From Bdellovibrionota bacterium (GTDB taxonomy: Bacteria; Bdellovibrionota; UBA1018; CAIPTA01; JAALKR01), in assembly GCA_965207455.1 (NCBI GenBank), contig CBDBMJ010000001.1, forward strand, positions 384,001-448,000: 64,000 nt of DNA, given 5' to 3'. The notes beneath the pieces are model-generated. The model made no database searches, was not told where the DNA came from, and saw only the letters and a list, made by a program, of their open reading frames with translations. Positions 44,994 to 64,000 of the stretch are shown here, one piece after another; position 1 is the stretch's first letter; each line of letters begins with the position of its first letter. Made by a program: the position numbers and the translations under genes.

Positions 44994-45383
44994 ATGCATA
45001 TAAGAGAAATAGAAGAGAATGTAAAAAATTTAGTAGGGAAATTTACTAACGAGCGATTTATTTTTGATTTCCTATTGTCTTTTGGTTGCCCAAATAAAAA
45101 ATTATTAAGAAAATCGATCAGTTCTGCTAATTCATGGGATAAAAAATATTTGCTTACCCGGTATAGCAAAGAAGAAGATGATTTCAATGAAATACAAGAA
45201 AAATTTGAAAGTGAATTATGGGCAGTAAATGCCTCAGTTCATTTCAATAAATGGGCAGATATGGATAAAAATGAATTTAAAAATATCCTCGCTTATTCTT
45301 ATGACGATGGTAAAAAGAAAAATATGGACTGGTGTCAGTCTTCAAGGAAAATAGCATCTGAAAATGAGAGGCTTGCAAAATGA
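44994..45383 (+). pseudogene. Probable chimeric gene remnant at the left edge of the defence island
   Basis: First ~35 aa resemble the N-terminus of YeeA/MmeI-like methyltransferases; the rest (WAVNASVHFNKWAD) looks unrelated. Recall only. Confidence 0.35.
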
Positions 45384-47359
45384 GTAAGCCAAGATACTTA
45401 ACAAAATCAAGATTTAAGCTAGGTATTGAATGTCCTACAAAGCTTTTTTACACAGGTAAAAAAGAATATCCAGACTCTAAGATGGATGACTTCTTCTTGG
45501 CAGCACTGGCCGAAGGTGGATTTCAGGTTGGAGATTTAGCAAAGCTGTATTTTCCAAATGGGCATGACATTACAACTCTTAACTATGAAGAAGCTGAAAA
45601 TCAAACACTTGAGCTTCTAAAACAAGATAATGTGATTATCTATGAGCCTGCGATACGCTTTCAAGATTTATTTATAAGAATTGATGTACTGGTAAAAAAA
45701 TGGAATCATTTCGATCTAATTGAAGTTAAGGCTAAATCTTTTGACGAGACAGAAGAAGAACCATTTCTTAATAAAAATGGGACGATTAAAGCAACTTGGA
45801 AATCTTACCTTTATGACATTGCTTTTCAAAGGCATGTCTTAGCCGGAGTATATCCAGATGCAAGTATTTCATCATACCTGATGATGGCAGATAAAAATGC
45901 TTCTTGCCTGACAGAGGGATTAAATCAAAAGTTTAGAATTGTGAGAGATGAATCAAACAGAAAAGGAATAAGCATATCTAATACAATGACGGCTAACGAC
46001 TTAAAGCACAAAATTCTTATTCAGGTTCCTGTGGATGATAAAATACAGCTAATTTATGATGGTAAAGATTCAAAAATTGTAAATAAGAGAGGATTTTTTG
46101 AAAATATTGAGTTCCTATCTGAAAAATATAAAGCAGATAAAAAAATAAAAAGTCCAATAGGTTCGAAATGCGCAAAATGCGAGTTTAAAATCTCTGGTTC
46201 TGATAAAAATTCTAAAAGCGGTTTCAAAGAATGTTGGAGTGAAGCTCTTAAATGGAAAGATGCTGATTTTTATGAGTCTAATATTCTTGAGGTTTGGAAC
46301 TTTAAAAGAAAAGATAAATTAATTGAAGAGGGAAAAATTAAACTTACTGATCTTTGTGAAGAAGATATTTCTCCAAAAAATGATAGTAATCCTGGAATTA
46401 CATCAAGTGAGAGACAATGGCTTCAAATAGAAATGGTACAGCTTGGGCAAGAGAAACCTTTCTTTGATGCCCATGGAATGAAATTGGAAATGGATAAATG
46501 GACTTTTCCTTTGCACTTTATAGATTTTGAAACAACTGCGGTTGCGATTCCTTTTAACAAAGGTCGTAAACCTTACGAGGGTATCGCCTTTCAATTTTCT
46601 CACCATATTGTTTCAAAAGATGGGTCAATTGAGCATGTGGGAGAATATTTAAATACTGAACGAGGTATATTTCCTAATTATGAATTTGTGAGACAGTTAA
46701 AGCTACAACTTGAAAAGGATGAGGGAACAATTTTTAGATATACTTCTCATGAAAACACTTATCTGAATTTAATCTATAGGCAGTTGCTGGTCGATGAATC
46801 TGAAATTCTAGATAAAAATGAGTTATGTGATTTTATTAAATCAATAACAAAGTCTGTTAGTTCAAGTGCCGAAAAGTGGAAAGGGCTAAGATCAATGGTA
46901 GATATGTGGGATTTGGTAAAGAAGTTTTACTATTCACCACAAACCAAAGGATCGAATTCGATTAAGGCGGTACTCTCTGCAATATTAAATTCGTCAGAGT
47001 ATTTGCAAAAGAAGTATTCACTCCCTATCTACGGTAAAGACATAAAAAGCCATAATTTTGATAATTGGAAATGGATAGAGATAAAAAACGGCATTATTAT
47101 TGATCCATATAAGAGATTACCAAAAATGTTCCAAGATATATCAGAAAAGAACATGAAAGTTCTCTCCGAAGATGATGAGCTTGCCAATGGTGGCGCAGCT
47201 CTAACCGCTTATGGGAAAATGCAGTTTGCTGAAATAACAGATTATGAAAAAGATGAGCTATGTAAAGCTCTGTTGAAATATTGTGAGTTGGATACTTTTG
47301 CTATGGTGATGATTTATGAAGCTTGGCGAGAGATGGTTAATAATGAAGAAGCAGTTTAG
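45380..47359 (+). CDS. DUF2779-domain protein: PD-(D/E)xK nuclease-like N-half plus DEDD/RNase H-fold C-half
   Basis: LTKSRF...ECP.KL, RIDVL...LIEVKA, YDIAFQ; FIDFET, PYE..AFQFS.H, GSNSIKAVL, YCELDT. Confidence 0.8.
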   Translation: MSKPRYLTKSRFKLGIECPTKLFYTGKKEYPDSKMDDFFLAALAEGGFQVGDLAKLYFPNGHDITTLNYEEAENQTLELLKQDNVIIYEPAIRFQDLFIRIDVLVKKWNHFDLIEVKAKSFDETEEEPFLNKNGTIKATWKSYLYDIAFQRHVLAGVYPDASISSYLMMADKNASCLTEGLNQKFRIVRDESNRKGISISNTMTANDLKHKILIQVPVDDKIQLIYDGKDSKIVNKRGFFENIEFLSEKYKADKKIKSPIGSKCAKCEFKISGSDKNSKSGFKECWSEALKWKDADFYESNILEVWNFKRKDKLIEEGKIKLTDLCEEDISPKNDSNPGITSSERQWLQIEMVQLGQEKPFFDAHGMKLEMDKWTFPLHFIDFETTAVAIPFNKGRKPYEGIAFQFSHHIVSKDGSIEHVGEYLNTERGIFPNYEFVRQLKLQLEKDEGTIFRYTSHENTYLNLIYRQLLVDESEILDKNELCDFIKSITKSVSSSAEKWKGLRSMVDMWDLVKKFYYSPQTKGSNSIKAVLSAILNSSEYLQKKYSLPIYGKDIKSHNFDNWKWIEIKNGIIIDPYKRLPKMFQDISEKNMKVLSEDDELANGGAALTAYGKMQFAEITDYEKDELCKALLKYCELDTFAMVMIYEAWREMVNNEEAV

Positions 47360-47367
47360 GTGATTTA

Positions 47368-50300
47368 ATGAGTGAGAAATTAAAACCTGATATAAAAATA
47401 TACTTAGATGAAATTTCAGAAAGACTTTACTCTGGTCATGCCTCTATTATGATTGGTACTGGTTTTAGTAAAAATGCGGTTCCAAATGCGAATGATTCAA
47501 AATCATTCTTAAATTGGAATGAATTAGCAGATATATTTTTCAAAAAATTATATGATAGAAAACCGGATGAAAAAGATCGGTATTTAAATCCTATTAAGCT
47601 TGCAGAAGAAGTTCAGGCCGCATTTGGAAGACCTACTCTTGATAAAATCATATTGGATAGTCTACCTGATTTAGATTATTCTCCTGCAAAATTACATAAA
47701 GATTTAGTTTCCTTACCGTGGAACAATATCTTTACAACAAATTATGATACTTTGTTAGAACGAGCAGGTGAAAAATCAACGCAGCGGTATGATATAGTTA
47801 TTAATCAAAAAGACCTTGTGTATTCAAAAAATCCTAGAATAGTAAAACTACATGGAAGCTTTCCATCGGAAAAACCTTTCATAATAACAGAAGAAGATTA
47901 TCGCACATATCCAGATCATTTTGCTCTTTATCTTAATACTGTCCAGCAATCTTTGATTGAAAACACATTGTGTTTGATTGGTTTTTCTGGCGATGATCCA
48001 AATTTTTTACATTGGATTGGATGGATTAGAGACAATCTTGGTTATGAACATTCGCCTAAAATTTATTTAATAGGTATTTTTGATATTTCTTCATCAAAAA
48101 TGAAGCTCTTGGAAAGAAAAAATATAACTGTGATTGATTTATCTGATACTGCTCCGCAAGGTAAAGACAAGCATCGAAAGGCTTTGGAAATTTTTATCAA
48201 ATATCTTAATAAAAAAGAAGATGATGAAATAAAATTAGACTGGCCTTCTGATAAAACACTACGGCCTCCTAATTATGATAAAAAAAATGATTTAAAAAAA
48301 GAAATGAGTGAAGTTGCAAACGAATGGAGAAAGGTCAGGGAGGAATATCCCGGTTGGGTAGTATGCCCGTATGAGAATCGCAAAAGATTATGGAGTTATA
48401 CGGAAGATTGGACTTATGAACGGCACTTACAATCAGAGGATACAGATGAAAGAGTCTTACTTTTTTTGTATGAGTTGGTTTGGCGATTAGAAAAATGCCT
48501 CGTTCCCTTGTGGGATGACCTTGCAAAAAGTGTAAATAGAGTTATAGAAGGTTTTCTTTCTTTTGATAAAACTAAACTAGAGAATGAAAATGAATTCGCT
48601 GCAATTCATGAAAAATGGCTATATTTAAATTTTTCGTATTTAAGGTATCTAAGAGAAGAAGGTTTGGATGATAAGTGGAGAGAGTCTTTGAAATTAACTA
48701 AATCAAGGCCTGATTCTTTACCTGAATTATATAAAATAAAAATGTTATTTGAAGAGTGTTACTTCTGCTTATATCGGCAAGATATAAAAGGACTGTTAGG
48801 ATTATTTATGCAGTTGAAAGGAAAAAACCTTTCTCCTTTTGAAAAAGCTCGCTTGGCTTCAATGATGGCTGAGTTTGGACTCCTGAAAGAGTCAAAAGCA
48901 CTGCTTGAAGAATCATTAAACTCTATTCGTTCTTTACAAAACTTAAAACCTATTACTAGCGACTATACTTATCTTTCTCAAGAATCGTATATTTTGCAAA
49001 TATTGAAAATATTAAAAGATGAGGGAAGTTTTTGGTCTAGAAGTAATTCCAATGATAAAAATCCTATTACTAAATATTATGAGAGTTCAACTGAAAAAAA
49101 GAATAAATATGATAAAGAAAAATCAGAAGATCAACCACAAGATAATGATAAACATAGTCGTGATTATATCTCTGAATTTGTAAATCGCTGGTCAACACTT
49201 AAAGATTACAAATGTGACCCATGGGGTGAGCTAGAGTTTTTTAAATTAAAATTGGAAGATCAGCCAATTCCATATGAGAGAGAAGTCAAAATTGATGGCT
49301 TTGATATTGGTCATTATTCTACATCATACAAATTAGGAGAGAATGATCCAGAGCCACTGAGAGCGTTTAATTTTTTAAGGTTTATTGAAGATATTGCAAT
49401 GCCTTTGCGAGTTTCTAATATGACATATGGGCAAGAATCTGTAAATGGAGCTATCTTACGACTTCATCAAGTAGCCCCTAATTGGGCATTGAGTATGATG
49501 TTAAGAGCTGGTGATAGCAAATCACTCGATAAAATATTAGATAGAGAAACCTTATATAGAATGAAGCAGGAAAAAGTTAATTATTTACTAACTTTTTATC
49601 TGGACTTACTCAATGAGGTGGAAGAGCTTGTAGGAATGTCAGATAGTTGGAAAACCTCTAATATTGGAATTAGAATTGCCCAACTGGTTCCAGAAATATT
49701 GTCAAGGTTGATACTAAAAACAACATTAGAAAATCGTGAAAAAGTATTAGAATTTTTAATAAAAGTTTATAGCTTTAAAGCAAAAAGTAATTATAGCGGT
49801 ATTGGAAATTTATGTAAAAGGCTCATTTCTTCTTGGCCACAAAAAGATTACAATAAATTAGTGAATACAATTCTGGTCAATTTTACTTGTCAGCAGGAAA
49901 GTAATCATATTATTCAAAGAGAATTTCCTGATCCATTTCTTTCATTAAATATTAAAGGCATTAAAGATCATAATGTTATGATTTCGATTCCAGATGTTGT
50001 CGTGAAAGATTTATTAGCAGACTTTTCTAAAGCTGAGGGTGAATTCAGACATAATTTATTTATCAGACTAGCCATACTAAATGATATTAGAGCACTGAAC
50101 AAAAATCAGGAGAAAATATTTTCAGAGTTATTATGGTCTCTAACTTGTGAAGATGGTTTTCCATCCGTAGGAGGTGATATTGATAAATACTGGTTCTCAA
50201 CATTACCATACCCTAATAAGATAGAAATATATAAGTTGTTTAAAGTATATCTTTTGAAGCTCATACCACCAGTGCAGGATGGAAATAATGTAAGTATTTC

Positions 50301-51156
50301 TTTGGGGAACTTTGCCATTTATCAAGAATTTATTGGTGCAAGAGAATTCCTTGGGAAAGAAATTGAATGGAATGTTGATGATGCTGAAAAATTATTAACG
50401 ATTATCTTAGATTACTTTGATAAGGATAGAAAACATCTTGAGAAAAAGGAAAAAGATCCAATAGGAGAGAGAAAAAAAGAGTTTCAACGAAGATTTATGC
50501 AGGTAGGCAAGATTATTTCGTTTGCTGTAGTCCCTTTCTTTTCAGATAAATTATTCAAAAAGAAGAAAATCAAGTTGGAGAATTTCATTGAGGTATTGTC
50601 TAAAAATGATGTTAGTGTTTCTAGTCTAGCAGAAGAAATGTTTTCTAATAAAATAACTAAGAATGAAAAGTTCCTAGATATAGTTAAAGATGAGGCAAGT
50701 GAAAAATCCTCGGATAACTGCTTTAGAGGAATAATTTCGATAACAAGAATAATTGAAGTTAGTTACAGGAACGATGAATATTCTAATTACAGAAATTTAA
50801 GTGAGATTTTAGTTGAAATGGTTTACTGGCGAGTATTCCCTCATGTAATTGCTGCCTTGGGGAATATATCTTACTTAATAAATATGGTGGATAAATTTGA
50901 ATTAGGTCAAGTTTTAGACAGACTTATTGTGGGTTTAAATTATTTACGCTATGAGACTGAGTCAGAACGAAGTAATCAGTCTAGAAAATTCTCTGATTTG
51001 TTACATGCGAGAGAGCAAGCTGCCGAATTAGCTTTTTCTATTTATAAAAAGTTAAAAATAGAACAAAAACAAGTTCCTCAAGAAATAATGAAATGGAAAG
51101 AAGTTTGCTCATCAAATGAAGAGTTTGTTGAAGTGAAGAACCAGTGGTTAAATTAA
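47368..51156 (+). CDS. SIR2-domain anti-phage protein, Dsr1-like
   Basis: N-terminal SIR2_2 (IGTGFS, FTTNYD, KLHGS, IITEEDY, LIGFSGDDPNF..WIGWIRD) plus ~1000-aa helical region; 1262 aa fits Dsr1 architecture as I recall it. Confidence 0.8.
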   Translation: MSEKLKPDIKIYLDEISERLYSGHASIMIGTGFSKNAVPNANDSKSFLNWNELADIFFKKLYDRKPDEKDRYLNPIKLAEEVQAAFGRPTLDKIILDSLPDLDYSPAKLHKDLVSLPWNNIFTTNYDTLLERAGEKSTQRYDIVINQKDLVYSKNPRIVKLHGSFPSEKPFIITEEDYRTYPDHFALYLNTVQQSLIENTLCLIGFSGDDPNFLHWIGWIRDNLGYEHSPKIYLIGIFDISSSKMKLLERKNITVIDLSDTAPQGKDKHRKALEIFIKYLNKKEDDEIKLDWPSDKTLRPPNYDKKNDLKKEMSEVANEWRKVREEYPGWVVCPYENRKRLWSYTEDWTYERHLQSEDTDERVLLFLYELVWRLEKCLVPLWDDLAKSVNRVIEGFLSFDKTKLENENEFAAIHEKWLYLNFSYLRYLREEGLDDKWRESLKLTKSRPDSLPELYKIKMLFEECYFCLYRQDIKGLLGLFMQLKGKNLSPFEKARLASMMAEFGLLKESKALLEESLNSIRSLQNLKPITSDYTYLSQESYILQILKILKDEGSFWSRSNSNDKNPITKYYESSTEKKNKYDKEKSEDQPQDNDKHSRDYISEFVNRWSTLKDYKCDPWGELEFFKLKLEDQPIPYEREVKIDGFDIGHYSTSYKLGENDPEPLRAFNFLRFIEDIAMPLRVSNMTYGQESVNGAILRLHQVAPNWALSMMLRAGDSKSLDKILDRETLYRMKQEKVNYLLTFYLDLLNEVEELVGMSDSWKTSNIGIRIAQLVPEILSRLILKTTLENREKVLEFLIKVYSFKAKSNYSGIGNLCKRLISSWPQKDYNKLVNTILVNFTCQQESNHIIQREFPDPFLSLNIKGIKDHNVMISIPDVVVKDLLADFSKAEGEFRHNLFIRLAILNDIRALNKNQEKIFSELLWSLTCEDGFPSVGGDIDKYWFSTLPYPNKIEIYKLFKVYLLKLIPPVQDGNNVSISLGNFAIYQEFIGAREFLGKEIEWNVDDAEKLLTIILDYFDKDRKHLEKKEKDPIGERKKEFQRRFMQVGKIISFAVVPFFSDKLFKKKKIKLENFIEVLSKNDVSVSSLAEEMFSNKITKNEKFLDIVKDEASEKSSDNCFRGIISITRIIEVSYRNDEYSNYRNLSEILVEMVYWRVFPHVIAALGNISYLINMVDKFELGQVLDRLIVGLNYLRYETESERSNQSRKFSDLLHAREQAAELAFSIYKKLKIEQKQVPQEIMKWKEVCSSNEEFVEVKNQWLN

Positions 51157-51259
51157 AGGAAGAACAATATCAGTGTTAGATAAAAATGAGGTAATTGAAC
51201 TAAGAAAAGTATTAGAAGAATTTAAGCCTGTTACAGGCCCTATTTTGAGAAAGAAATAT

Positions 51260-51510
51260 TGCTCTTTCCCGAAAAAACGGACGCTTTTATACAACGCAGC
51301 GTTTTGTTTTTCTAGCATAGTCCATTGAACTCAAATATCCAAGCGAAGAATGCAGCCTTTCTCGATTATACCAACTTATGTATTCAAAAACAGCTCTTCT
51401 TGCCTCAGATATATCCTTAAATTTTGTCTTTCCTAACTCATTTTTAATCGTATGGAAAAAGCTCTCTGCGTAAGCATTATCATAGCAATTCCCCTTTTCG
51501 CAAGATACTA
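51260..51510 (-). mobile_element. IS3-family remnant (3' end of orfB plus right terminal repeat)
   Basis: GNCYDNAYAESFFHTIKNE...YI.WYNRERLHSSLGY; terminal TGCTCTTTCCCGAAAAAACGGAC at 51260. Upstream part missing. Confidence 0.85.
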
Positions 51511-51772
51511 AACTTCTCGATTTTTCCATATTCCAAAGAAATAAATATTATTATAATCCTATATTTATTTTTTAGCTGTCGCAATGTGGCTGTTAAGATA
51601 TCTTGGTAGTTATGATGCGACAGAATCGCTTGCTGATCATATAATTTGGTTTCAAGATTAGATATCTCTACACTGTAAGGGGTGTTTTTTTCTGAAACAA
51701 GAGTTAAATCTCCATAAATGGATAATTATTATATTAATAATTAAAAATTATGTATTTAGTATTTTTTCCTTA

Positions 51773-53546
51773 CTGTGAAACGGAAATAAGTGCATCATCC
51801 TTGCTCAAACTCCATTTTTATGGGTATAGGGATCAAGCTATATCCATATTTATCTCTAATTACCCGTTCAGGCTACTTTAACCTATGAATTTCACTGCCG
51901 TTTACTAAATTGAATAATAAAATCCAGAGAAAAAGGATTTTTCTAAAATTACTTCTGGGAATAGCTTAAAAATGATCTAACCGTATGCAGTGGAATGTAT
52001 CTCTGTTGATAGGTCGTCGAAAATCTTTATTAATTTTTTCCGAACCTCCTTTTTGAATGAGAGGATCAATCGCATAAAGTCAAAAGTTTTCATGATAGCA
52101 AAAGTTGTTTCTGTATACACGATAATATCAGGGTTTTTCTCTTCTGGCCGCTTTTGCCTGTATGTTTTTAATGTGAAATCATCAAGTGAATCACACTCTT
52201 CCGAGTTAAGAAAGAGATTAAAAAGATTATAAGCAATCGTTCCCATTACAACCCTAAAGACAACCTGGGTGTATTTTTTGGAAGGCAGTTTTTCTAGTCC
52301 CTGGAAACATTTCATTTGGCGGTGAGATTCTTCAATTTCTGTGCGCAAGTCATAAGTGCTTAAAACTGCCTTTGCTGATTTATTCTTCCTAGTATCTGCA
52401 AAAATAATGTTTTCTTCCTCACCGTTTCTCTTTGTAAAATTAACTAATACACCACTTTTAAATACAGAAAACGATTTCCAGTCCAAATCGTCCTCCTTAA
52501 GCTCTTTTATTCTTTGTTGGTACCTTGTGGGATGAGGCGCCCATTTATTTTCTGCCAAGGCTTCAGCGACTACGTATTTACTTACCTCTAAACTCTTTTT
52601 TAAGGGAATACAGATATCAATTCCACGATCCTGCTTTAAAGAGGTTATCCATTTGCTATCTAAAAAACCTCTATCCATGATTAAAACGGAATTTCTTTCA
52701 AAATTAAAGTCCTTTACCAGCTCTCTTCCAAGGGTGAGGTCATGCTCATTGATAGGGGCAAATTTCATTGCACGAATAACTCCCTTTCGGTCAATAATTT
52801 CTTGAATCCAGACAACCTTATATCCATACTCAGAATCATTCTCAGCATTTTTTAAAACTCCAGCACCTTGAAAACTTTCGAAAAGATGTTTTGGAACATG
52901 TAACTTAGTTCCATCAATAATATAGTGATGAGTTCTTCCAACCGACTGCTCTTTGAATATATTATTTAGGATACCATTAAACCAATCTACTATATCCTCT
53001 GCCTTAGTTGATAGTAAGACGTGTTTTAGAGTCTCTCCATGAAATGCAGCTTCTCTAGGGTACTTATTTTTTCCATTAAACCCCTCTTCCAGCACTTTGG
53101 CTGAGTATCTTAATTTAGCTATAAGCTCTGCTGAATTTAACATATAAGGCGCTGAAACTAACGAGTGTTCATCATTTAGCCGTTGAATAATCTGCGCTAA
53201 TAAAAGAAACTCAATAGGAACTTCGTATCTTTTTCTTGGATCAGGAAAGGACTTTAATACATCCTGCAAGAACCCTGCATCGAGAGCATACTTGGCAATG
53301 GAATCGACCGGCATTTTTTGGCTTATTCTAACAGACTCTATAATGCCCTTCTTCAGTGATTCAATCGTCTTTTTCTTATCATTTTTTATTATTGGTAGAT
53401 CAGGAAACATTCTAAAAGGTTAAATTATTTTTGATCAAAACGCATGATTATTTTTCATACACGGTATTGGAGTTCAAATGAAGAATTTTTTAACACTCTT
53501 TCTTGTATTTATTTTTTCTTTGACACGAATTCTCTCCGTTTCACAA
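51773..53546 (-). mobile_element. Complete IS4-like insertion sequence (1774 bp)
   Basis: Terminal inverted repeats CTGTGAAACGGAAATAA / TTGTGAAACGGAGAGAA; 9-bp target duplication TTTTCCTTA at 51764-51772 and 53547-53555. Confidence 0.85.
51977..53410 (-). CDS. DDE transposase (IS4-like)
   Basis: IIDGT, IMDRGF, YDLRTEIEESHRQMK (Y-x2-R-x3-E-x6-K). Confidence 0.9.
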   Translation of the reverse strand: MFPDLPIIKNDKKKTIESLKKGIIESVRISQKMPVDSIAKYALDAGFLQDVLKSFPDPRKRYEVPIEFLLLAQIIQRLNDEHSLVSAPYMLNSAELIAKLRYSAKVLEEGFNGKNKYPREAAFHGETLKHVLLSTKAEDIVDWFNGILNNIFKEQSVGRTHHYIIDGTKLHVPKHLFESFQGAGVLKNAENDSEYGYKVVWIQEIIDRKGVIRAMKFAPINEHDLTLGRELVKDFNFERNSVLIMDRGFLDSKWITSLKQDRGIDICIPLKKSLEVSKYVVAEALAENKWAPHPTRYQQRIKELKEDDLDWKSFSVFKSGVLVNFTKRNGEEENIIFADTRKNKSAKAVLSTYDLRTEIEESHRQMKCFQGLEKLPSKKYTQVVFRVVMGTIAYNLFNLFLNSEECDSLDDFTLKTYRQKRPEEKNPDIIVYTETTFAIMKTFDFMRLILSFKKEVRKKLIKIFDDLSTEIHSTAYG

Positions 53547-53622
53547 TTTTCCTTAATCTTTTGTCCATCCTTCCGATAAAATAGATAATGTTTGAGAGAT
53601 TAAAAGATTTAAGGAGAAATTT

Positions 53623-55857
<2,235 letters not shown>

Positions 55858-56228: not shown

Positions 56229-57437
56229 ATGGAAAAGCTAGAAAACAGAACAAAAACAGCTACATCGATGGTTTCTGTGCTAAATATGGCTAGTTGCGCG
56301 AGAAGGTCGGACGATTGCTTCTTAACACTCAAGCAAGTAGAGGAGCCATTTCACTCTCTAAAGAATCGAGAAGACGATGGAGGCCTCACAAATGTCGTAA
56401 AGATTTTTGAAAAGCAGGAGGAGCACACCTCCCTCGATAGAGCCACGAAGGTGGCAAAAGATATTATGGCAGAGGTTATGCAGTTCCGTCGCATGCCGAA
56501 CCATGAAAATTGCGATTTGCCCTGCCCCTCGTGCCTCTCGCCCCATCTACCCAAAGTCACTTCTGCAATTCAACAGGGAAAACCCGTTACTTTCGTACTT
56601 CCCGCATTTCCAGGTAAGTCGCCCAATCTTGCGAAGGTTCTTGGAGCAATGCCAGACATAGCCGAGCAACACTCCCTCCAGTTCCTAAATCAACTTTGCA
56701 ATCGCATTCGAAAGCATTACTTGCCAGGCGCTCGAGTTATCTTGTGCTCAGATGGTCGGGTTTTTAGCGACATCGTAGGTATGCGCGAGAAAGACGTAAC
56801 CGACTACCAACACGAACTGGCTCAAATGATCAAAGAACTCAACCTTGAAAATCTTTCAACCTTTAACCTCGATGAACTGTGCGACGGAAGAGACTTCGTT
56901 CAAATGCGTAACGAGCTAATGGACGAATATGGAAAGTCGCTGGAATCTCTTAGAGAAAAAGTTCGACGAGGCGGAAAACTCTCTGAAAACTCAGAAGACC
57001 AAGAAGCACACCGTATGTACTGCGGAATTACCCGATTCTTGTTCGAAGACTCCATGTACCCCGGTCAGACAAAAAGCCGTACAGCAGTCCAAAAAGACTC
57101 CCGAATTAGAGCCTATCAAGTTATCCGTAGAAGCAATGCTTGGAGTGAACTCATTGGAGAACTCTTCCCCGATGCAGTTCGATTCTCCATTCATCCTCAA
57201 ACCTGTGGAGCAAAAAAGCTTGGTATTCGCCTTATGGAAGCCGAAAGCTGGATGACTCCTTGGCATGGAGTCGCGATGAAGACAGATGAGGGCTTTGTCC
57301 TTCTCAAGCGCTCACAGGCCGAAGCCCTAGGAGCTCAAATGGTATGCTCGGAAAATGGACGTCCCAGCCATTATGATTTGACGGCAAGCCAAACAGCGGT
57401 TAACTTAGAAAGCAGAAAAATTAAGGTATCATTATGA
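56229..57437 (+). CDS. pvcA: L-tyrosine/tryptophan isonitrile synthase (PvcA/IsnA/Dit1 family)
   Basis: FVLPAFPGKSPN, LG.MPD.AE, CSDGRVFSD, RSNAWS, RFSIHPQ, WMTPWHGVA. Start uncertain (ORF open from 56142). Confidence 0.93.
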   Translation: MEKLENRTKTATSMVSVLNMASCARRSDDCFLTLKQVEEPFHSLKNREDDGGLTNVVKIFEKQEEHTSLDRATKVAKDIMAEVMQFRRMPNHENCDLPCPSCLSPHLPKVTSAIQQGKPVTFVLPAFPGKSPNLAKVLGAMPDIAEQHSLQFLNQLCNRIRKHYLPGARVILCSDGRVFSDIVGMREKDVTDYQHELAQMIKELNLENLSTFNLDELCDGRDFVQMRNELMDEYGKSLESLREKVRRGGKLSENSEDQEAHRMYCGITRFLFEDSMYPGQTKSRTAVQKDSRIRAYQVIRRSNAWSELIGELFPDAVRFSIHPQTCGAKKLGIRLMEAESWMTPWHGVAMKTDEGFVLLKRSQAEALGAQMVCSENGRPSHYDLTASQTAVNLESRKIKVSL

Positions 57438-58270
57438 AATATACAACCTCAAGACTTGAACCCTTTGGCTTACTGATCGAGCCGCTTCACTCAAACGACG
57501 ATGTACACACCCTCGATGTGGAGGAACTGCGGGATCTTTTTCAGCGCGAACACCTCATTGCCCTAAGGGGTTTTCATACATTTAAGGGAGCAGAGGGCTT
57601 TTCCGAGTACTGTGAACGCTGGGGGGAAGTCAGCCTATGGCCCTTTGGCAAAGTGCTGGAGCTTGTAGAGCAGGATAATCCAGAAGATCATATTTTCGAC
57701 TCCAGCTACGTTCCCCTACACTGGGATGGAATGTATCGCCCCCAAGTTCCCGAGTACCAGATATTTCACTGTGTTCAGGCACCCCCAGCAGATTCTGGAG
57801 GTCGCACTACTTTTTCAAACACCGTGCTTGCCCTAGAACATGCTCCAAGCCATGTACGCTCACTTTGGAGCAAGGTCACCGGTGTTTATCACCGAAAGAT
57901 GGAGTTCTATAACAGCAAAACAGTCTCACCTATCATTACTCGCCACCCACAGAGAGATTACCCTGTGATTCGTTATAATGAGCCTCCAGTGGAGACAGAC
58001 AAAGACTTTGTTAACCCTCCAGTACTGGAGTTTACTGGTCTAAATGCTGAGGATCTTTCAGAATTTCATCGCAGTTTACAGGAAGCGCTCCGTGCTCCCA
58101 GCAATTTTTACGCCCATGAATGGCACACAGGAGATATTGTTATTTCCGACAATTTCACCCTTTTGCATGGTCGAGAATCCTTTGTATCAAAAGCACCACG
58201 ACACCTTCGACGAGTTCATGTACTCAGCGATCCCCCACTGAATAACCCCGGTTTGGAATCCTACAAATGA
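57434..58270 (+). CDS. pvcB: Fe(II)/2-oxoglutarate oxygenase, PvcB/IsnB (TauD family)
   Basis: W.FG.VLELVE, VPLHWDGMY, GGRTTF, DNFTLLHGR; ATGA overlap with pvcA. Confidence 0.92.
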   Translation: MKYTTSRLEPFGLLIEPLHSNDDVHTLDVEELRDLFQREHLIALRGFHTFKGAEGFSEYCERWGEVSLWPFGKVLELVEQDNPEDHIFDSSYVPLHWDGMYRPQVPEYQIFHCVQAPPADSGGRTTFSNTVLALEHAPSHVRSLWSKVTGVYHRKMEFYNSKTVSPIITRHPQRDYPVIRYNEPPVETDKDFVNPPVLEFTGLNAEDLSEFHRSLQEALRAPSNFYAHEWHTGDIVISDNFTLLHGRESFVSKAPRHLRRVHVLSDPPLNNPGLESYK

Positions 58271-59757
58271 ACCAACTTTTGACAGGAAGCCAATACCTAG
58301 AAAGCCTACGCGATGGGCGAAATGTTTACTTGAACGGCGAAAAGGTTAGCGATGTAACCACTCACCCTGCGTTTCGTAATAGCGCTCTATCGATTAGTCG
58401 AATGTACGATGCGCTTCACGATCCTAAAAGCAAGGAAACACTCACAGCCATCGATGAATTTGGAACTCGTACACATAAGTTTTTTAAGCCCAGTAGAAGT
58501 GTGCAGGATCTTGTGGAAGCAAGAGAGGCCATTGCCCACTGGCAAAGAATGGGATACGGCTTTCTTGGTCGCACACCTGAGTATAAGGCATCGTTTATGG
58601 CAGGACTAGCTGTGAATGCGGATTACTACGGGTCATTTTCCGAGACTGCGAAAGGATGGTATCGGGAGTTCACACAAAAGGGTTTATACCTTAACCATGT
58701 GATTATCAATCCTCCAATCGACCGAAAGCGACCCATTCACGAGATGGGTGAAGAGTTTATCCACGCCGTTCGAGAAACCGACGCTGGAATTATCGTTAGT
58801 GGTGCAAAAATGCTTGCCACAGGTTCAGCAATTACACACGCAAGCTTTGTTGCTCCAGTGGCGTCCGCTGTTCTTGAACCAGGCAGGGCCGAGGATTTTG
58901 CCCTCGTATTCTTCGTTCGAATGAATAATCCCAAATTACGCTTAATTTGCCGTGCACCCTTTGGTACACGCGCTCCTTTCGACCAACCACTTTCCAGTCG
59001 ATTTGATGAAAACGATGCGGTTTTGATTCTTGATGAAGCCTTTATTCCTTGGGAGGACGTGCTCGTATACCGGGATATCGATCGTTCCACTCAGTTTTAT
59101 GTCAAGTCCGGTTTTCCCAACCTATACAACTTTCAATCGGCTATTCGACTTTCTACAAAGCTTGAGTTTATGACCGGGCTTCTCTCTCGCTGCGTGCGAT
59201 CCAATGGCACCGATTCCTTTCGAGGCGTTCAGGCAGCACTGGGTGAAATGATTTCTATGCGAAATATGGTTTGGGCTCTGACCAGTGCGATGGCCTACGA
59301 TCCTGAACCGTCAACGGGTGGCACTGTGGTTCCTCGCCTCGATCACGCAACAGCTATGCGCATGTATAATGCGCAGATTTGGGCACGAGTGCATGAACTT
59401 TTTGAAGTAAATTTAGGAGGATCTCCCATTGTCGTTCCTTCCAGTTGCCACGACTTAAAAAACAAGGAACTCAAGCCGCTCATCGATCGCTACTACCGTG
59501 GCGCTGACTGTAGTGCCGAAGAACGAATTCAACTCCTCAAGCTGGCATGGGACGCTATTGGTTCCGAGTTCGGAGGACGAGACGAACTCTACGAACGCAA
59601 TTATTCTGGAAACGGAGAACAGGTTCGATTGGACGCCCTAAAATGGGCAAAAAAAAGCGGATCCCTGGAACGCTTCGAAGGGTTCGTGCAAGAATGCATG
59701 GATGATTACAATGTGGACGGTTGGGTGCGCGGCCCTTGGAAGAATGGGGGCAACTGA
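58267..59757 (+). CDS. pvcC: Flavin-dependent aromatic hydroxylase, PvcC/HpaB family
   Basis: YLESLRDGR, HPAFRNS, GRTPEYKA, NPPIDR, GAKMLAT, PLSSRFDENDA, GSEFGGR.ELYE.NYSG. Confidence 0.9.
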   Translation: MNQLLTGSQYLESLRDGRNVYLNGEKVSDVTTHPAFRNSALSISRMYDALHDPKSKETLTAIDEFGTRTHKFFKPSRSVQDLVEAREAIAHWQRMGYGFLGRTPEYKASFMAGLAVNADYYGSFSETAKGWYREFTQKGLYLNHVIINPPIDRKRPIHEMGEEFIHAVRETDAGIIVSGAKMLATGSAITHASFVAPVASAVLEPGRAEDFALVFFVRMNNPKLRLICRAPFGTRAPFDQPLSSRFDENDAVLILDEAFIPWEDVLVYRDIDRSTQFYVKSGFPNLYNFQSAIRLSTKLEFMTGLLSRCVRSNGTDSFRGVQAALGEMISMRNMVWALTSAMAYDPEPSTGGTVVPRLDHATAMRMYNAQIWARVHELFEVNLGGSPIVVPSSCHDLKNKELKPLIDRYYRGADCSAEERIQLLKLAWDAIGSEFGGRDELYERNYSGNGEQVRLDALKWAKKSGSLERFEGFVQECMDDYNVDGWVRGPWKNGGN

Positions 59758-61628
59758 TGTGCGGAATCACAGGATGGGTCGACTTTAACCAAAATCCAGA
59801 AACTCAAACTCTTCAAGCCATGACGAAAACCCTCGAAAGACGGGGACCAGATGGCAGCGGCGTATGGATGGATAAGCACGTTGGTTTGGGACACCGTCGT
59901 TTGGCAGTGATCGACCCTCAAGGAGGCGCTCAACCCATGTTGAGTCCAGAACAGTCGAAAAAAAATGTTCCACTTGCGGTTATCTCCTATAACGGTGAAG
60001 TATATAACTTTCGCGAGCTAAGAGAAGAACTGAAAACCTTGGGCCATACATTTCGAACTCAGTGTGATACTGAGGTTATCCTTCGCGCATTCCTTGAATG
60101 GAAGTTGGATTGCGTGCAAAAACTTAATGGCATTTATGCGTTTGCGATATGGGACAGTGAGAACGAAGAGCTCTTACTTGTTCGGGATCGCCTTGGTGTT
60201 AAGCCACTTTTTTATTATCCACTTGAGGACGGCATACTCTTTGGTTCAGAACCTAAAGCCATCCTTGCTAATCCACTTGCCCATGCAAGAGTTTCACGAG
60301 AGGAACTTTGCGACGCGCTTCTCTTTTTGCGTACTCCAGGGAGAGTGCCCTTTCAAGGGATGAGCGAACTCAAGCCCGGGTATATTTTACGTGTTCGCCG
60401 TGGAGGAATCCGAGAGGAGCGCTACTGGAGTCTTGAAGCTCGACCCCATACGGATGATATGGAAACTACGATTAAAACCGTTCGCGAACTTTTAGAAGAC
60501 ACCGTAACTCGACAAATGGTTTCAGATGTGCCACTTTGTTCACTACTTTCTGGAGGACTGGATTCCAGTGCAGTGTCTGCTTTTGCTCAGCGAGTTCGTC
60601 GCTCTCAAGGTGAGAAGATTTCAACTTTCGTGGTGGATTTTATTGGTCAGACGGATAATTACCAAGCAGATCCCATTCGTCCCTCTCCAGATTTACCCTT
60701 TGCCCAAGAAGTCGCTGACCATATTGAATCAGACCATCACGAAGTTATACTCGACAAAGCACGTCTCATCGATCCAGAAGTACGTGAAGCCGTGCTTAAC
60801 TCCTGGGATCTTCCCTTTAACTTCGGAGACCTTGATATTTCTCTGTACTTACTCTTTATGGCTGTTCGTAAACACGCAACAGTTGTTCTCTCTGGAGAAG
60901 CTGCCGATGAACTTTTTGGAGGTTATCTTTGGTTTAACGATGAGAACGCCATACAAGCCGAGACCTTTCCGTGGCTCAAGCTAGCTGCCCATAAAGGATT
61001 GAATCCAAGTGCTCTCTTTAACAAATCATTCCTTGAAAAACTTCGACTGGACGAATACCAAAACGACCTCTACCAGTCGGCCTTGCAAGAAGTGCCTCGC
61101 TTAGAAGGTGAAAATTCGAAAGAAGCTCGACTTCGCGAGATTGCCTATCTCACACTCACCCGTTGGCTTCCCATTCTGCTGGAAAAGAAAGATCGAATGA
61201 GTATGGCAGTGGGGATCGAAGGTCGCGTTCCCTTTTGTGATCATCGACTTGTGGAATACGTTTTCAATATTCCTTGGGAGATGAAAAAATCCTTTGCCTT
61301 GGAAAAAGGAATTCTTCGTGAAGCTGTAAAAGACCTTCTTCCTAAATCAGTGGTTCAACGTAAGAAGGCAGCGTATCCGACAGTTCAAGATCCGCAATAC
61401 GATCAAGAATTAGCATCCCTGTTGAACTCAAGTTTGAAAAATCCAAACTCTGCATTGCACGCATACTTGTCGAAAGAAGGTGTGGAAAAGATTGTGGCTA
61501 AGAGCGATCAAGCTGCCCTATCGGAATTTGAGCGCATTCTTGTGGAGTCGACAGTAAGGTTAGATGCTTGGATCACTAAGTACAATATCGAAATGCCAGA
61601 TTGGAGTAATGAAAATGAAAGCCATTAG
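59757..61628 (+). CDS. Asparagine synthetase-like glutamine amidotransferase
   Basis: MCGI N-terminal nucleophile, RRGPD, GHRRL, NGEVYN, LSGGLDSS, SGEAADELFGGY; TGATG coupling to pvcC. Confidence 0.93.
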   Translation: MCGITGWVDFNQNPETQTLQAMTKTLERRGPDGSGVWMDKHVGLGHRRLAVIDPQGGAQPMLSPEQSKKNVPLAVISYNGEVYNFRELREELKTLGHTFRTQCDTEVILRAFLEWKLDCVQKLNGIYAFAIWDSENEELLLVRDRLGVKPLFYYPLEDGILFGSEPKAILANPLAHARVSREELCDALLFLRTPGRVPFQGMSELKPGYILRVRRGGIREERYWSLEARPHTDDMETTIKTVRELLEDTVTRQMVSDVPLCSLLSGGLDSSAVSAFAQRVRRSQGEKISTFVVDFIGQTDNYQADPIRPSPDLPFAQEVADHIESDHHEVILDKARLIDPEVREAVLNSWDLPFNFGDLDISLYLLFMAVRKHATVVLSGEAADELFGGYLWFNDENAIQAETFPWLKLAAHKGLNPSALFNKSFLEKLRLDEYQNDLYQSALQEVPRLEGENSKEARLREIAYLTLTRWLPILLEKKDRMSMAVGIEGRVPFCDHRLVEYVFNIPWEMKKSFALEKGILREAVKDLLPKSVVQRKKAAYPTVQDPQYDQELASLLNSSLKNPNSALHAYLSKEGVEKIVAKSDQAALSEFERILVESTVRLDAWITKYNIEMPDWSNENESH

Positions 61629-62586
61629 AGTAACAGATTCAGGAGGCCCGGAAGTTCTCGTTTACGAAGATCGATCCGATCCCACTCCAGGGGAAAATGA
61701 TCTCTTGGTAGCAACTGATGCCATTAGTGTGAATTTTATCGATCTCTATCGTCGGGAAGGACGCTACCCACAGCCACCTCCGGGTGTTCCGGGGGAGGAG
61801 GGGTCGGGTCGAGTGATTGCTGTAGGCTCTGGTGTCAGTGAATTTTCCGTTGGAGATAAAGTTGCGTGGACAACTGTTATGGGCAGTTACGCAGAGAAAG
61901 TGATTGTGTCAGTTGAAAAAGCCATTCACGTTCCAGAAGGAATAGACATGCAAACCGCTGCCGCTGCTCTTGTGATCGGAATGACTGCCCATTATCTCGT
62001 CTACGATTCCTATAAGGTGAAGGAAGGGGATACTTTGCTTGTGCATGCTGCGGCTGGGGGAGTGGGATCGATTCTTGTGCGAATGATAAAGTCGCTGGGT
62101 GGTCGAGTGATTGGAACAGTTTCTACTGAGTCGAAAGAAAAATCGGCAAGAGAGAATGGAGCGGATGAAGTGATCCGTTACGATCGGATTAAAGATTGGC
62201 CAGCAGAGGTTAGGCGTCTCACCGATGGTAAAGGTGTGGATGCCGTCTACGACGGGGTGGCCGCTGCCACATACAAGGGGAGCATTGCCTCTCTTCGGAT
62301 GCGAGGAACTTTAGTTCTTTTTGGAGGAGCCAGCGGTCCTGTTCCTCCTTTCGACATCATGGAGCTAGCATGGGCTGGTTCTTTAACTCTCACACGTCCC
62401 TATCTTGAGCACTTTCGCGCAACGAGGGAAGAATTTCTTTGGAGGGCAAATGATGTTTTTCAGGGCATACTTGATAATAAATTCGGCGTTACGATCGGTG
62501 GAACCTATCCATTAGCCCAAGCAGCTGATGCGCATAGAGATCTAGCTAGTCGCAACGCTAAAGGAAAACTTTTATTAATTCCGTGA
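61615..62586 (+). CDS. NADPH:quinone oxidoreductase (zeta-crystallin MDR family)
   Basis: GGPEVL, VNFID...R.G.Y, HAAAGGVG, GSLTLTRP, GKLLLIP; GGAG RBS. Confidence 0.9.
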   Translation: MKAIRVTDSGGPEVLVYEDRSDPTPGENDLLVATDAISVNFIDLYRREGRYPQPPPGVPGEEGSGRVIAVGSGVSEFSVGDKVAWTTVMGSYAEKVIVSVEKAIHVPEGIDMQTAAAALVIGMTAHYLVYDSYKVKEGDTLLVHAAAGGVGSILVRMIKSLGGRVIGTVSTESKEKSARENGADEVIRYDRIKDWPAEVRRLTDGKGVDAVYDGVAAATYKGSIASLRMRGTLVLFGGASGPVPPFDIMELAWAGSLTLTRPYLEHFRATREEFLWRANDVFQGILDNKFGVTIGGTYPLAQAADAHRDLASRNAKGKLLLIP

Positions 62587-62594
62587 GGTGATCT

Positions 62595-63446
62595 ATGAGT
62601 AAAATTGTTGGAGCTGGCCTGCTTTCTCATGCGCCAGTGATTATGTTTCCAGAGTCTGTGCGAATTGAAGCAAATGGCGGTCAAGACTTCACACTGGCTA
62701 CGGGGCTTAAGCGTTTACGAAGTGAAGTATTTGATCAAGTTGAGCATGATACGGTGATTGTTTTGGATACCCACTGGGCCACAACCACAGAGTTTGTGGT
62801 GTCTTCTCATAAAAATCGATCCGGCAAATTCACCTCAAGCGAAATGCCCATGCTTTTTCATCAAGTCCCTTACGATTTTTCTGGAGATCCAGAACTTGCG
62901 CATGCGATATGTGAAGAAGCCAACAATTCTTGGGCAGCTCCAGCAGATGATCCTTACCTTCCAATTCAATACGCCACACTCAACCTTCAATCCTACCTCG
63001 CCAAACCCAATCAAGCATGGGTTTCCATTTCGATTTGCCAGACGGCAACTACAGAGGATTTTCTTCGTTTTGGTGCTGCGATCTCTCGTGCCATTGAGAA
63101 AACAGGTCGACGGGTAATGCTTATCGCTTCAGGAGGATTGTCCCATGTGTTTCAACCCCTTTCAGTTTTGCGCGAACACATGGCCGGCGATCCAAAAAAT
63201 ATTATTTCAGAAGAGGCTCGCACAGCAGATCTGGAACGAATCGCTTGGCTTGAAGCTGGCAATCATAAGCAAGTTATAGAGACCATGTCAGATTATATGA
63301 AATTTGAACCAGAGGCGCGCTTTGGTCATTATTTAATGCTCGTTGGAGCTTTGGGAGGAAACGCCTGCACTCTTTCTGGCAAGCGATACAGCGACTATGA
63401 AAGTGGTATTGGCACTGGTCATATTCATCTTTGGTTTCAGCCATGA
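62595..63446 (+). CDS. Class III extradiol dioxygenase (LigB fold, HpaD-like)
   Basis: SHAP, V.DTHW, GDPELA, ASGGLSH, GTG...LWF, matching the HpaD-type layout. Confidence 0.85.
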   Translation: MSKIVGAGLLSHAPVIMFPESVRIEANGGQDFTLATGLKRLRSEVFDQVEHDTVIVLDTHWATTTEFVVSSHKNRSGKFTSSEMPMLFHQVPYDFSGDPELAHAICEEANNSWAAPADDPYLPIQYATLNLQSYLAKPNQAWVSISICQTATTEDFLRFGAAISRAIEKTGRRVMLIASGGLSHVFQPLSVLREHMAGDPKNIISEEARTADLERIAWLEAGNHKQVIETMSDYMKFEPEARFGHYLMLVGALGGNACTLSGKRYSDYESGIGTGHIHLWFQP

Positions 63447-64000
63447 AGACCATACTAATTACTGGAGCAACTTCAGGGCTTGGACGTTACCTAGCGGGGC
63501 GACTTTCTGATCATAAATTGCTCTTGCATGGTCGTAACCAACAGCGCACAGAAGAATTAGCAGCCCACCTCGATGCCCAACCGTACGTGGCAGACTTGAG
63601 TGATCTTTCTCAGGTGCGCAGGCTTGCAGGTGAAGTCCTTGCCGATCAATCCAAGATCGATATTTTAATTAACAACGCTGGAATTGGTTACGGTACTGAA
63701 CGGGAACTGTCTATCGATGGTCACGAGTTAAGATTTGCTGTAATGTACCTTGCTCCCGTTCTACTCACTCGCCTGATACTGCCTTCCATTACTTCACAGG
63801 TGTTAAACATCGGATCAGCGGGGCAAGAGTCCATCGACTTTGACGATATAAATATTGAGAAAAACTACAATGGAGTGACGGCCTACAGGCGAGCCAAACT
63901 TGCACTTGTCATGGCCACATTTGATCTGGCTCAATTGATGCCCAACCTGAGGGTGAATGTCATACATCCAGCAACCTATATGGATACGAATATAGTTCGT
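63443..64000 (+). CDS. Short-chain dehydrogenase/reductase, runs off the window end (not in the ORF track)
   Basis: Manual translation MKTILITGATSGLG...DILINNAG...AYRRAKLA...HPATYMDT; ATGA overlap with upstream gene. Confidence 0.9.
   Translation, partial: MKTILITGATSGLGRYLAGRLSDHKLLLHGRNQQRTEELAAHLDAQPYVADLSDLSQVRRLAGEVLADQSKIDILINNAGIGYGTERELSIDGHELRFAVMYLAPVLLTRLILPSITSQVLNIGSAGQESIDFDDINIEKNYNGVTAYRRAKLALVMATFDLAQLMPNLRVNVIHPATYMDTNIVR

Follow-up and report, generated by a model that had tools for sequence, protein, structure and literature searches.

A nine-gene isonitrile operon of an uncultured Bdellovibrionota bacterium and its putative ring-opening and amidating tailoring block

Known isonitrile systems and the operon in the window

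To our knowledge, the traceable bacterial isonitriles made by PvcA/IsnA-type enzymes keep their aromatic ring. Among the closest described systems are the pvcABCD cluster of Pseudomonas aeruginosa, which makes paerucumarin, and the isnAB clusters of Xenorhabdus and Photorhabdus, which make rhabduscin. Here, we analyzed an operon of nine genes that begins at position 56229 of a 64,000-nucleotide stretch of DNA (the window, positions 384,001-448,000 of contig C1 of the host genome G000, GenBank assembly GCA_965207455.1) from an uncultured Bdellovibrionota-type bacterium. The gene set predicts the oxidative ring opening and amidation of an isonitrile, which would yield a new scaffold and give three enzyme families functions new to them. 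Judging from the sequence, we consider that the operon would make an exported, ring-opened amide of tyrosine isonitrile and that it was horizontally acquired, and we give this reading a probability of about 0.6.

On the one hand, the operon shares with the paerucumarin cluster homologues of PvcA and PvcB, followed by an HpaB/PvcC-family gene. On the other hand, PvcB of P. aeruginosa has Leu and Cys at two marker positions where the window PvcB has R102 and N182, the decarboxylating signature; hpaB is directly followed by asnB instead of pvcD, and the window operon has six further genes. Considering that a decarboxylating PvcB would lose the carboxylate for the coumarin lactone, the product is probably not paerucumarin, and this candidate was set aside. 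The rhabduscin clusters share the decarboxylating signature in IsnB and the predicted intermediate 4-(2-isocyanovinyl)phenol, but they have a glycosyltransferase, whereas the nine genes of the window include none and carry hydroxylase and ring-cleavage genes instead; rhabduscin was therefore rejected. A sequence-only reading of the window had claimed that the tailoring set matches neither system, which is borne out by the lack of pvcD and of a glycosyltransferase and by the PvcB signature. The homoprotocatechuate pathway (HpaBC, HpaD, HpaE and HpaG) shares the HpaB-family hydroxylase and the HpaD-lineage dioxygenase, but HpaE, HpaG and HpaC are missing from the operon, and the absence of the HpaE dehydrogenase and the HpaG decarboxylase led us to discard a catabolic hpa operon. 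Hazimycin is an isonitrile with an amide, as predicted for the window product, but its isonitrile is geminal to the amide (PMC13647977), an arrangement that a decarboxylating PvcB would rule out.

The nine genes (pvcA-pvcB-hpaB-asnB-QOR-ligB-SDR-MFS-ATP-grasp) are intact and lie on the same strand, as judged from open reading frames and family profiles. The coordinates are as follows, those above 64000 being counted on from the window.

56229..57437, plus strand: pvcA/isnA isonitrile synthase (PF05141, E 1e-76; PDB 3E59, E 4e-75)
57434..58270, plus strand: pvcB/isnB Fe/2-oxoglutarate desaturase, decarboxylating (PIsnB) type (PF02668; aligned to 3EAT and 7TCL)
58267..59757, plus strand: hpaB/pvcC flavin-dependent phenol hydroxylase, oxygenase component (PF11794 and PF03241; PDB 4OO2 and 6QYH, E ~1e-146)
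59757..61628, plus strand: asparagine-synthetase-like glutamine amidotransferase, asnB (PF13537 and PF00733; TIGR01536)
61615..62586, plus strand: zeta-crystallin-type NADPH:quinone/ene reductase, QOR (PF08240 and PF00107; PDB 4RVU, E 1e-88)
62595..63446, plus strand: LigB-fold extradiol dioxygenase, HpaD lineage (PF02900; TIGR02298 the best model, below cut-off)
63443..64186, plus strand: SDR of 247 aa (PF00106; the window ends at 64000 and the gene at C1 448186)
64186-65331 (G000:C1:448186-449331), plus strand: MFS exporter (PF07690; NF033135, 156 bits, cut-off 400)
65328-66563 (G000:C1:449328-450563), plus strand: ATP-grasp ligase, PRK07206 subfamily (NF005543, 463 bits, cut-off 302)

The seven genes named in the sequence-only reading were found as open, co-oriented frames with one stop each, and their Pfam profiles agree with the families given there. 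The expectation that the operon runs beyond the window also held, since the genome sequence completes the SDR gene and adds the MFS and ATP-grasp genes outside the window, the operon ending at G000:C1:450563, 2563 bases beyond. In that reading every junction was an ATGA or TGATG overlap or a gap of 8 bp; this stands for pvcA/pvcB, pvcB/hpaB and ligB/SDR (ATGA), hpaB/asnB (TGATG) and QOR/ligB (8-bp gap), but not for asnB/QOR, where the overlap is 14 nt from ATG 61615, which has a well-spaced GGAG, or 20 nt from ATG 61609. With SDR/MFS (TGATG) and MFS/ATP-grasp (ATGA), seven of the eight operon junctions follow the tight pattern. The start of pvcA is uncertain, as 56229 gives 402 aa compared with 365 and 359 aa in two orthologous clusters, to which the extra N-terminus does not align, and a later start is possible. 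The presence of catalytic motifs together with intact, closely coupled frames supports the pathway proposed below. Promoter and terminator scans stood at chance level (18 vs 21.0 and 13 vs 12.8). Only the amidotransferase (TIGR01536) and the ATP-grasp ligase (PRK07206) exceed NCBIfam cut-offs, the other proteins falling below those of their best models, so annotation does not supply exact substrates.

Predicted conversion of tyrosine to a ring-opened amide

The first three steps of the pathway are ordinary, while the next three are unusual and apparently unsettled. A PF05141 synthase adjoins a TauD-type PvcB/IsnB oxygenase, the arrangement of an IsnA/PvcA-type cluster. Enzymes of the PvcA family act on an amino acid and ribulose-5-phosphate (PMC13232609). 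From what is known of this family, PvcA would join L-tyrosine with ribulose-5-phosphate to give tyrosine isonitrile; its sole NCBIfam match is the tyrosine model NF045653 (286 bits, cut-off 600), and a phenol hydroxylase gene lies in the same operon. PvcB carries H96-D98-H245, R102 and N182 by motif position and alignment to 3EAT and 7TCL. According to a published sequence rule, position 107 (PIsnB numbering) is K/R and position 188 is N/H in decarboxylating enzymes, compared with L and C in PvcB (PMC9467999). As in the window PvcB, R and N occupy both marker positions in 10 of the 11 homologues checked. By this rule, PvcB would decarboxylate and desaturate its substrate, so that 4-(2-isocyanovinyl)phenol is the predicted product and a coumarin is unlikely. 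The earlier claim of an isonitrile pathway with a decarboxylated vinyl isonitrile intermediate thus finds support in the enzyme families and in R102 and N182. HpaB (TIGR02310, 541 bits, below the cut-off of 885) would then hydroxylate the phenol to a catechol using reduced flavin from an unlinked reductase, and the QOR, which lacks a CxxC zinc motif (NF008024, 245 bits, below cut-off), may keep the catechol reduced or later reduce an enal.

In the fourth step, LigB would cleave the ring, likeliest at the proximal 2,3 bond, giving 5-(isocyanovinyl)-2-hydroxymuconate semialdehyde and with it the sole remaining carboxylate of the molecule. The residues H12, H60, Y126, H184 and E240 are invariant in all 36 aligned sequences, and we take H12, H60, H184 and E240 to be the iron ligands and catalytic base. 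By both sequence and fold, the best match and nearest relative is 8IQ8, the 3,4-dihydroxyphenylacetate 2,3-dioxygenase of A. baumannii (template modelling score, TM, 0.86; the predicted structure has a predicted local distance difference test score, pLDDT, of 88). The DOPA 4,5-dioxygenase 8IN2 ranks 23rd against the first rank of 8IQ8, with 15% identity and TM 0.73. DOPA 4,5-dioxygenases carry a DHG motif; at this position the operon enzyme reads QYA (residues 125-127), and the alignment shows an xY[AG] pattern. A betalain-type DOPA 4,5-dioxygenase was accordingly dismissed as closest kin, being distant in sequence and fold. Elsewhere in the genome, G000:C1:842194-844063 holds a LigB-fold paralogue with an N-terminus like the 2-aminophenol 1,6-dioxygenase beta subunit, next to a similar-looking neighbour, and the two are possibly an alpha/beta pair.

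The surroundings of related dioxygenases separate two groups. Among 80 metagenome loci around LigB relatives, the two at 68-69% identity carry all nine genes, and pvcA, pvcB, hpaB and asnB are absent from 78 of the 78 loci at 49-56%, many of which are short contigs. In the loci tested, the 49-56% relatives are flanked by HpaE-like (3/3) and HpaG-like (4/4) catabolic genes, which score below curated cut-offs. They form a separate supported clade (97/100) in a tree with a very long outgroup branch and an unsure root. In an alignment, 24 columns set the isonitrile-linked dioxygenases (32 sequences) apart from this catabolic sister clade (4 sequences), and the changes include the loss of an Arg and of a Lys. 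The plasmid collection gave six matches to the dioxygenase, at no more than 54% identity, and the one examined lies in a catabolic context.

In the fifth step, the amidotransferase would convert the ring-cleavage carboxylate to an amide. AsnB scores 509 bits against a cut-off of 267 for TIGR01536 and has an N-terminal MCGI and an SGGLDSS loop. Considering that decarboxylation removes the original carboxylate, an amidotransferase with an intact glutaminase Cys and nucleotide loop needs ring cleavage first. The carboxylate that would arise only at ring cleavage is, on the sequence evidence, the main logical tie between the operon genes. This logic and the LigB and AsnB families support the earlier proposal of ring cleavage and amidation as the likely tailoring. 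The nearest structure to AsnB is the 'hydroxyamidotransferase' 7YLZ (E 9e-167, compared with 6e-48 for AsnB asparagine synthetase), presumably a trichostatin enzyme; a hydroxamate product was nevertheless rejected, as no N-oxygenase is among the nine genes.

2-Hydroxymuconate semialdehydes react with ammonia to give picolinates, and the semialdehyde proposed here would likewise close with ammonia to a pyridine. Our single best structural guess, itself a doubtful one, would be 5-(2-isocyanovinyl)picolinamide, perhaps in reduced form, with a reduced open-chain amide, lactam or pyrone rated about equally. The SDR, MFS and ATP-grasp proteins would be accessories of the nine-gene variant, for redox tailoring, export and ligation of an amino acid to the acid or in a side branch. 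The SDR has TGxxxGxG, NNAG and YxxxK motifs and gave no informative match in the structure comparison. The ATP-grasp ligase scores 152 bits with the DdaF model and matches the 'L-amino acid ligase' PDB 30VH (E 4e-36), and its comparison with representative proteins gave no named substrate clue. By analogy with other isonitriles, the product may serve as a metal-binding antimicrobial or an inhibitor of copper enzymes.

Another outcome of ring cleavage has to be weighed. Cyclopentenyl isonitriles of Trichoderma have reportedly been traced by labelling to tyrosine via ring cleavage with loss of the carboxyl, a likeness to the route proposed here. A Trichoderma-like pathway (dermadin, isonitrinic acid), in which distal 4,5 cleavage and carbocyclisation yield a cyclopentenyl isonitrile whose amide sits on a three-carbon chain, is distinctly improbable for this operon. 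By atom mapping such a route requires the vinyl isonitrile and 4,5-cleavage, and DOPA 4,5-dioxygenases share the LigB fold (8IN2, TM 0.73). LigB is, however, nearer to HpaD by sequence and fold and has xY[AG] instead of DHG, its sister clade lies in hpaE/hpaG-like operons, and we found no paper on such a route in the open-access literature searched. A dermadin-like cyclopentene was accordingly demoted from first structural guess on the dioxygenase fold and sister-clade evidence.

Distribution and evolution of the cluster

The first six genes of the operon have the same annotation and order as BP1026B_II0180-0185 of Burkholderia pseudomallei, where PvcA, PvcB, PvcC, asparagine synthase, quinone oxidoreductase and dioxygenase are followed by a LysR regulator, the whole being named 'cluster 7, isonitrile' (PMC9040570). 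The BPSS0160 region and BTH_II0229-0234 represent the same cluster, the latter catalogued as a predicted pyoverdine cluster (PMC6963729). The comparison rests on annotation and on proteins for two of the six genes: AsnB is 63% identical to the Burkholderia protein and the B. thailandensis dioxygenase 59%. In Burkholderia, the convergent LysR gene lies directly downstream where the window operon has SDR-MFS-ATP-grasp, and annotation places an SDR (II0176) four genes ahead of the cluster. The sequence-only reading had taken the gene set as undescribed, which fails for the six-gene core already listed as 'isonitrile'; this listing also means that the core is not confined to the host lineage. BPSS0161, a taurine dioxygenase reported to be positively selected, directly follows BPSS0160 (PMC2848565) and by position is probably the pvcB of the Burkholderia isonitrile cluster.

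Orthologues of both AsnB and the dioxygenase occur in Streptomyces, Crossiella, Amycolatopsis, Burkholderia and several metagenome-assembled genomes (MAGs), and of AsnB also in Pseudomonas. The AsnB orthologues form a discrete group: among the 120 matches listed from 8000 candidates scored, 92 clusters besides that of the window lie at 61-80% identity, and identity then falls to ~54%. In six taxa (an Oligoflexales MAG, S. netropsis, S. cinnamoneus, S. sichuanensis, Crossiella equi and B. savannae), the accession numbers of the asnB and ligB orthologues differ by two, and 32 of the 60 contig sizes from the dioxygenase list recur among the 82 from the amidotransferase list. A search of viral contigs for the Streptomyces context of these genes gave no match. 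An earlier description of what the six-gene core makes, whether by Brady et al. 2007 or in a subscription journal for some strain of Streptomyces, Pseudomonas or Burkholderia, is unlikely. The orthologues do lie in well-studied culturable genera, and one table lists BPSS0160 as 'putative Isonitrile' with Brady 2007 as the reference (PMC9821509). Yet the excerpts of papers from 2019, 2022 and 2023 give 'predicted pyoverdine', 'isonitrile' and 'putative isonitrile' and name no compound, and no product for the gene set was found in the open-access literature searched, which leaves most subscription journals outside its scope.

The complete nine-gene order recurs in a gammaproteobacterial MAG (L004, 54-80% identity) and in L022 (57-82%), which is more than chance would give; L023 is 99.99% identical to L004, so the two were counted once. 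PvcA and PvcB trees were built quickly and without a root from 11 rows each, with clusters labelled beforehand by gene content and the divergent L020 omitted. Both reject monophyly of the three nine-gene clusters (approximately unbiased test, p-AU, 5e-62 for PvcA and 1e-5 for PvcB). The neighbours of L004 are FAD-type cassettes of Gammaproteobacteria (SH-aLRT 99, PvcA), and those of L022 are relatives from the host class. Tailoring proteins are close among the three clusters: HpaB is 80-85% identical, and the ATP-grasp ligase 60-68% compared with 51-53% to FAD-type cassettes. Since the trees reject a common origin, the seven-gene tailoring block appears to have been exchanged downstream of pvcAB pairs already in place. 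With trees this small and unrooted, repeated replacement the other way round is a possible alternative.

A shorter relative is the pvcA-pvcB-PRK07190-PRK07206 cassette of L005 and L006, whose PvcA and PvcB are 54-63% and 62-69% identical to those of the window. Its ATP-grasp ligase is 52% identical and likewise belongs to the PRK07206 subfamily, but one FAD monooxygenase takes the place of hpaB-asnB-qor-ligB-SDR; this was assigned to PRK07190 by profile in L005 and recognized by N-terminal sequence in the others. A pvcA-pvcB-FAD monooxygenase cassette was also seen in L003, L005-L007, L018, L019 and L102, sometimes with a PRK07206 ATP-grasp gene or MFS remains, its hosts being Bdellovibrionota, gammaproteobacterial MAGs and B. 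stagnalis. The top named PvcA matches include Legionella. Work on N-acyl histidines in Legionella reportedly concerns the pvcAB-ATP-grasp cassette.

These cassettes bear on the question of whether ring cleavage builds the product at all. The catechol or phenol vinyl isonitrile could itself be active, with the QOR and dioxygenase serving self-protection or turnover and the amidotransferase and ATP-grasp ligase acting on other acids, which we regard as quite unlikely. LigB is kin to a catabolic lineage, QORs reduce quinones, and related ATP-grasp ligases stand in pvcAB cassettes devoid of ring-cleavage genes (L005, L006). In B. pseudomallei, moreover, the first four genes shift together, pvcA, pvcB, pvcC and asnB being 5- to 8-fold down at 37 vs 28 C, and the last two do not change (PMC9040570). 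Against this, AsnB is 72-76% identical among the three nine-gene clusters and its gene lies between hpaB and QOR in every cluster version observed, yet absent ring cleavage it would have no carboxylate to act on; nor do the genes include a dehydrogenase or decarboxylase for onward degradation.

Several points weigh against the ring-opened amide that we prefer. Single residue swaps left the product of PvcB-type enzymes unchanged, so that the marker rule is a correlation (PMC9467999). No HpaC/PvcD-type flavin reductase is in the operon, and in the host genome, which is 94.7% complete, PF01613 gave 0 matches and PF00175 and PF00881 were not found, one PF03358 gene (FMN reductase) remaining. The predicted cleavage position depends on an identity of only 23% between LigB and 8IQ8, and short contigs are frequent among the control loci. 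The amidotransferase and the ATP-grasp ligase would vie for a single carboxylate. The QOR and dioxygenase genes of B. pseudomallei had low counts and no significant change between 37 and 28 C (PMC9040570), a pattern that does not bear out co-expression with the first four genes. Finally, with adjacency judged from accessions, pvcA was not seen beside asnB-ligB in any Streptomyces or other actinomycete.

Genomic setting and significance

The operon stands out from its host genome, whose appearance of belonging to the Bdellovibrionota agrees with a match between the PvcA of a relative from the host class and a protein labelled Bdellovibrionia. It is the 10 kb richest in G+C there, its content being 46.9%, a value reached by only 2 of the 2359 genome segments of the same size (mean 40.2%, standard deviation 2.9); G+C rises from ~28% upstream into the operon and falls to 32-39% downstream. 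In the genomes sampled, an amidotransferase orthologue was found in 0 of 400 others of the host phylum and in none of the 399 further genomes scored from the class of G127 (one genome unscored), and the dioxygenase occurs in 1 of 127 host-class genomes, the host itself. PvcA-family genes are present in 6 of 60 relatives, none with tailoring genes in the stretch examined, two of them lying at contig ends. Foreign G+C and rarity among relatives make horizontal acquisition the simplest reading, and the operon was probably acquired from another bacterium. Remnants of insertion sequences (IS) lie on both sides.

51260..53410, minus strand: upstream remnants, an integrase-core (IS3-like) C-terminal fragment and a DDE transposase
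G000:C1:450600-452981, minus strand: downstream remnants, an integrase-core remnant and a DDE transposase

The integrase-core remnants on the two sides share 92% identity over 238 nt. The flanking elements have further copies elsewhere in the host genome, and a composite transposon is a weak explanation, since the IS3-like remnant is present at several other sites. The downstream DDE transposase (C1:451341-453000) has three copies, 99.9-100% identical, on contig C3 (7258-24887) at a spacing of ~7.4-8.5 kb.

Foreign composition, the IS remnants and the lack of an orthologue among the 400 further genomes sampled from the phylum would also suit a recent passenger stalled beyond the PvcAB step, as would the absence of a regulator seen beside the operon and of an HpaC-type reductase in the genome. 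We hold this to be very improbable: the nine frames are intact despite 18-46% divergence from the nearest clusters, without a break, and the host genome has ribulose-phosphate epimerase, chorismate synthase and an FMN reductase.

Further features were noted around the operon. The low-GC region upstream (window 45380-55857, 28-34%) holds a DUF2779 protein, a 1262-aa SIR2-like protein, a DDE transposase and a 744-aa TerB_N/TerB/TerB_C protein with an acidic run, and resembles a defence island. Beyond the window, the minus strand carries a Type II CRISPR-Cas locus (G000:C1:453250-459339; L001 14257-20000) made up of cas1, cas2, a 1020-aa open reading frame that is Cas9-like by eye, and an array in which ~27 repeats follow one another every 65-68 nt. 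Frames resembling mevalonate-pathway and isoprenoid genes by eye are at G000:C1:475828-479958.

In summary, the six-gene core is already catalogued, whereas the nine-gene form and its reading as a ring-opening pathway were not found in the open-access literature searched. The cluster of an uncultured Bdellovibrionota-type bacterium is thereby tied to an orphan cluster of Burkholderia labelled 'pyoverdine' or 'putative isonitrile'. In its widest form, which we hold tentatively and at somewhat less than even odds, our reading is that of a widespread and chemically unreported pathway, in which the ring of a tyrosine vinyl isonitrile would be opened by a dioxygenase recruited from catabolism and rebuilt as a pyridine-carboxamide or cyclopentene isonitrile, the seven-gene tailoring block moving between lineages to join whichever pvcAB pair is present and the Burkholderia orphan being the six-gene form of the pathway. 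The analysis offers a pathway that is concrete and testable, with culturable strains of Streptomyces and Crossiella as likely producers.

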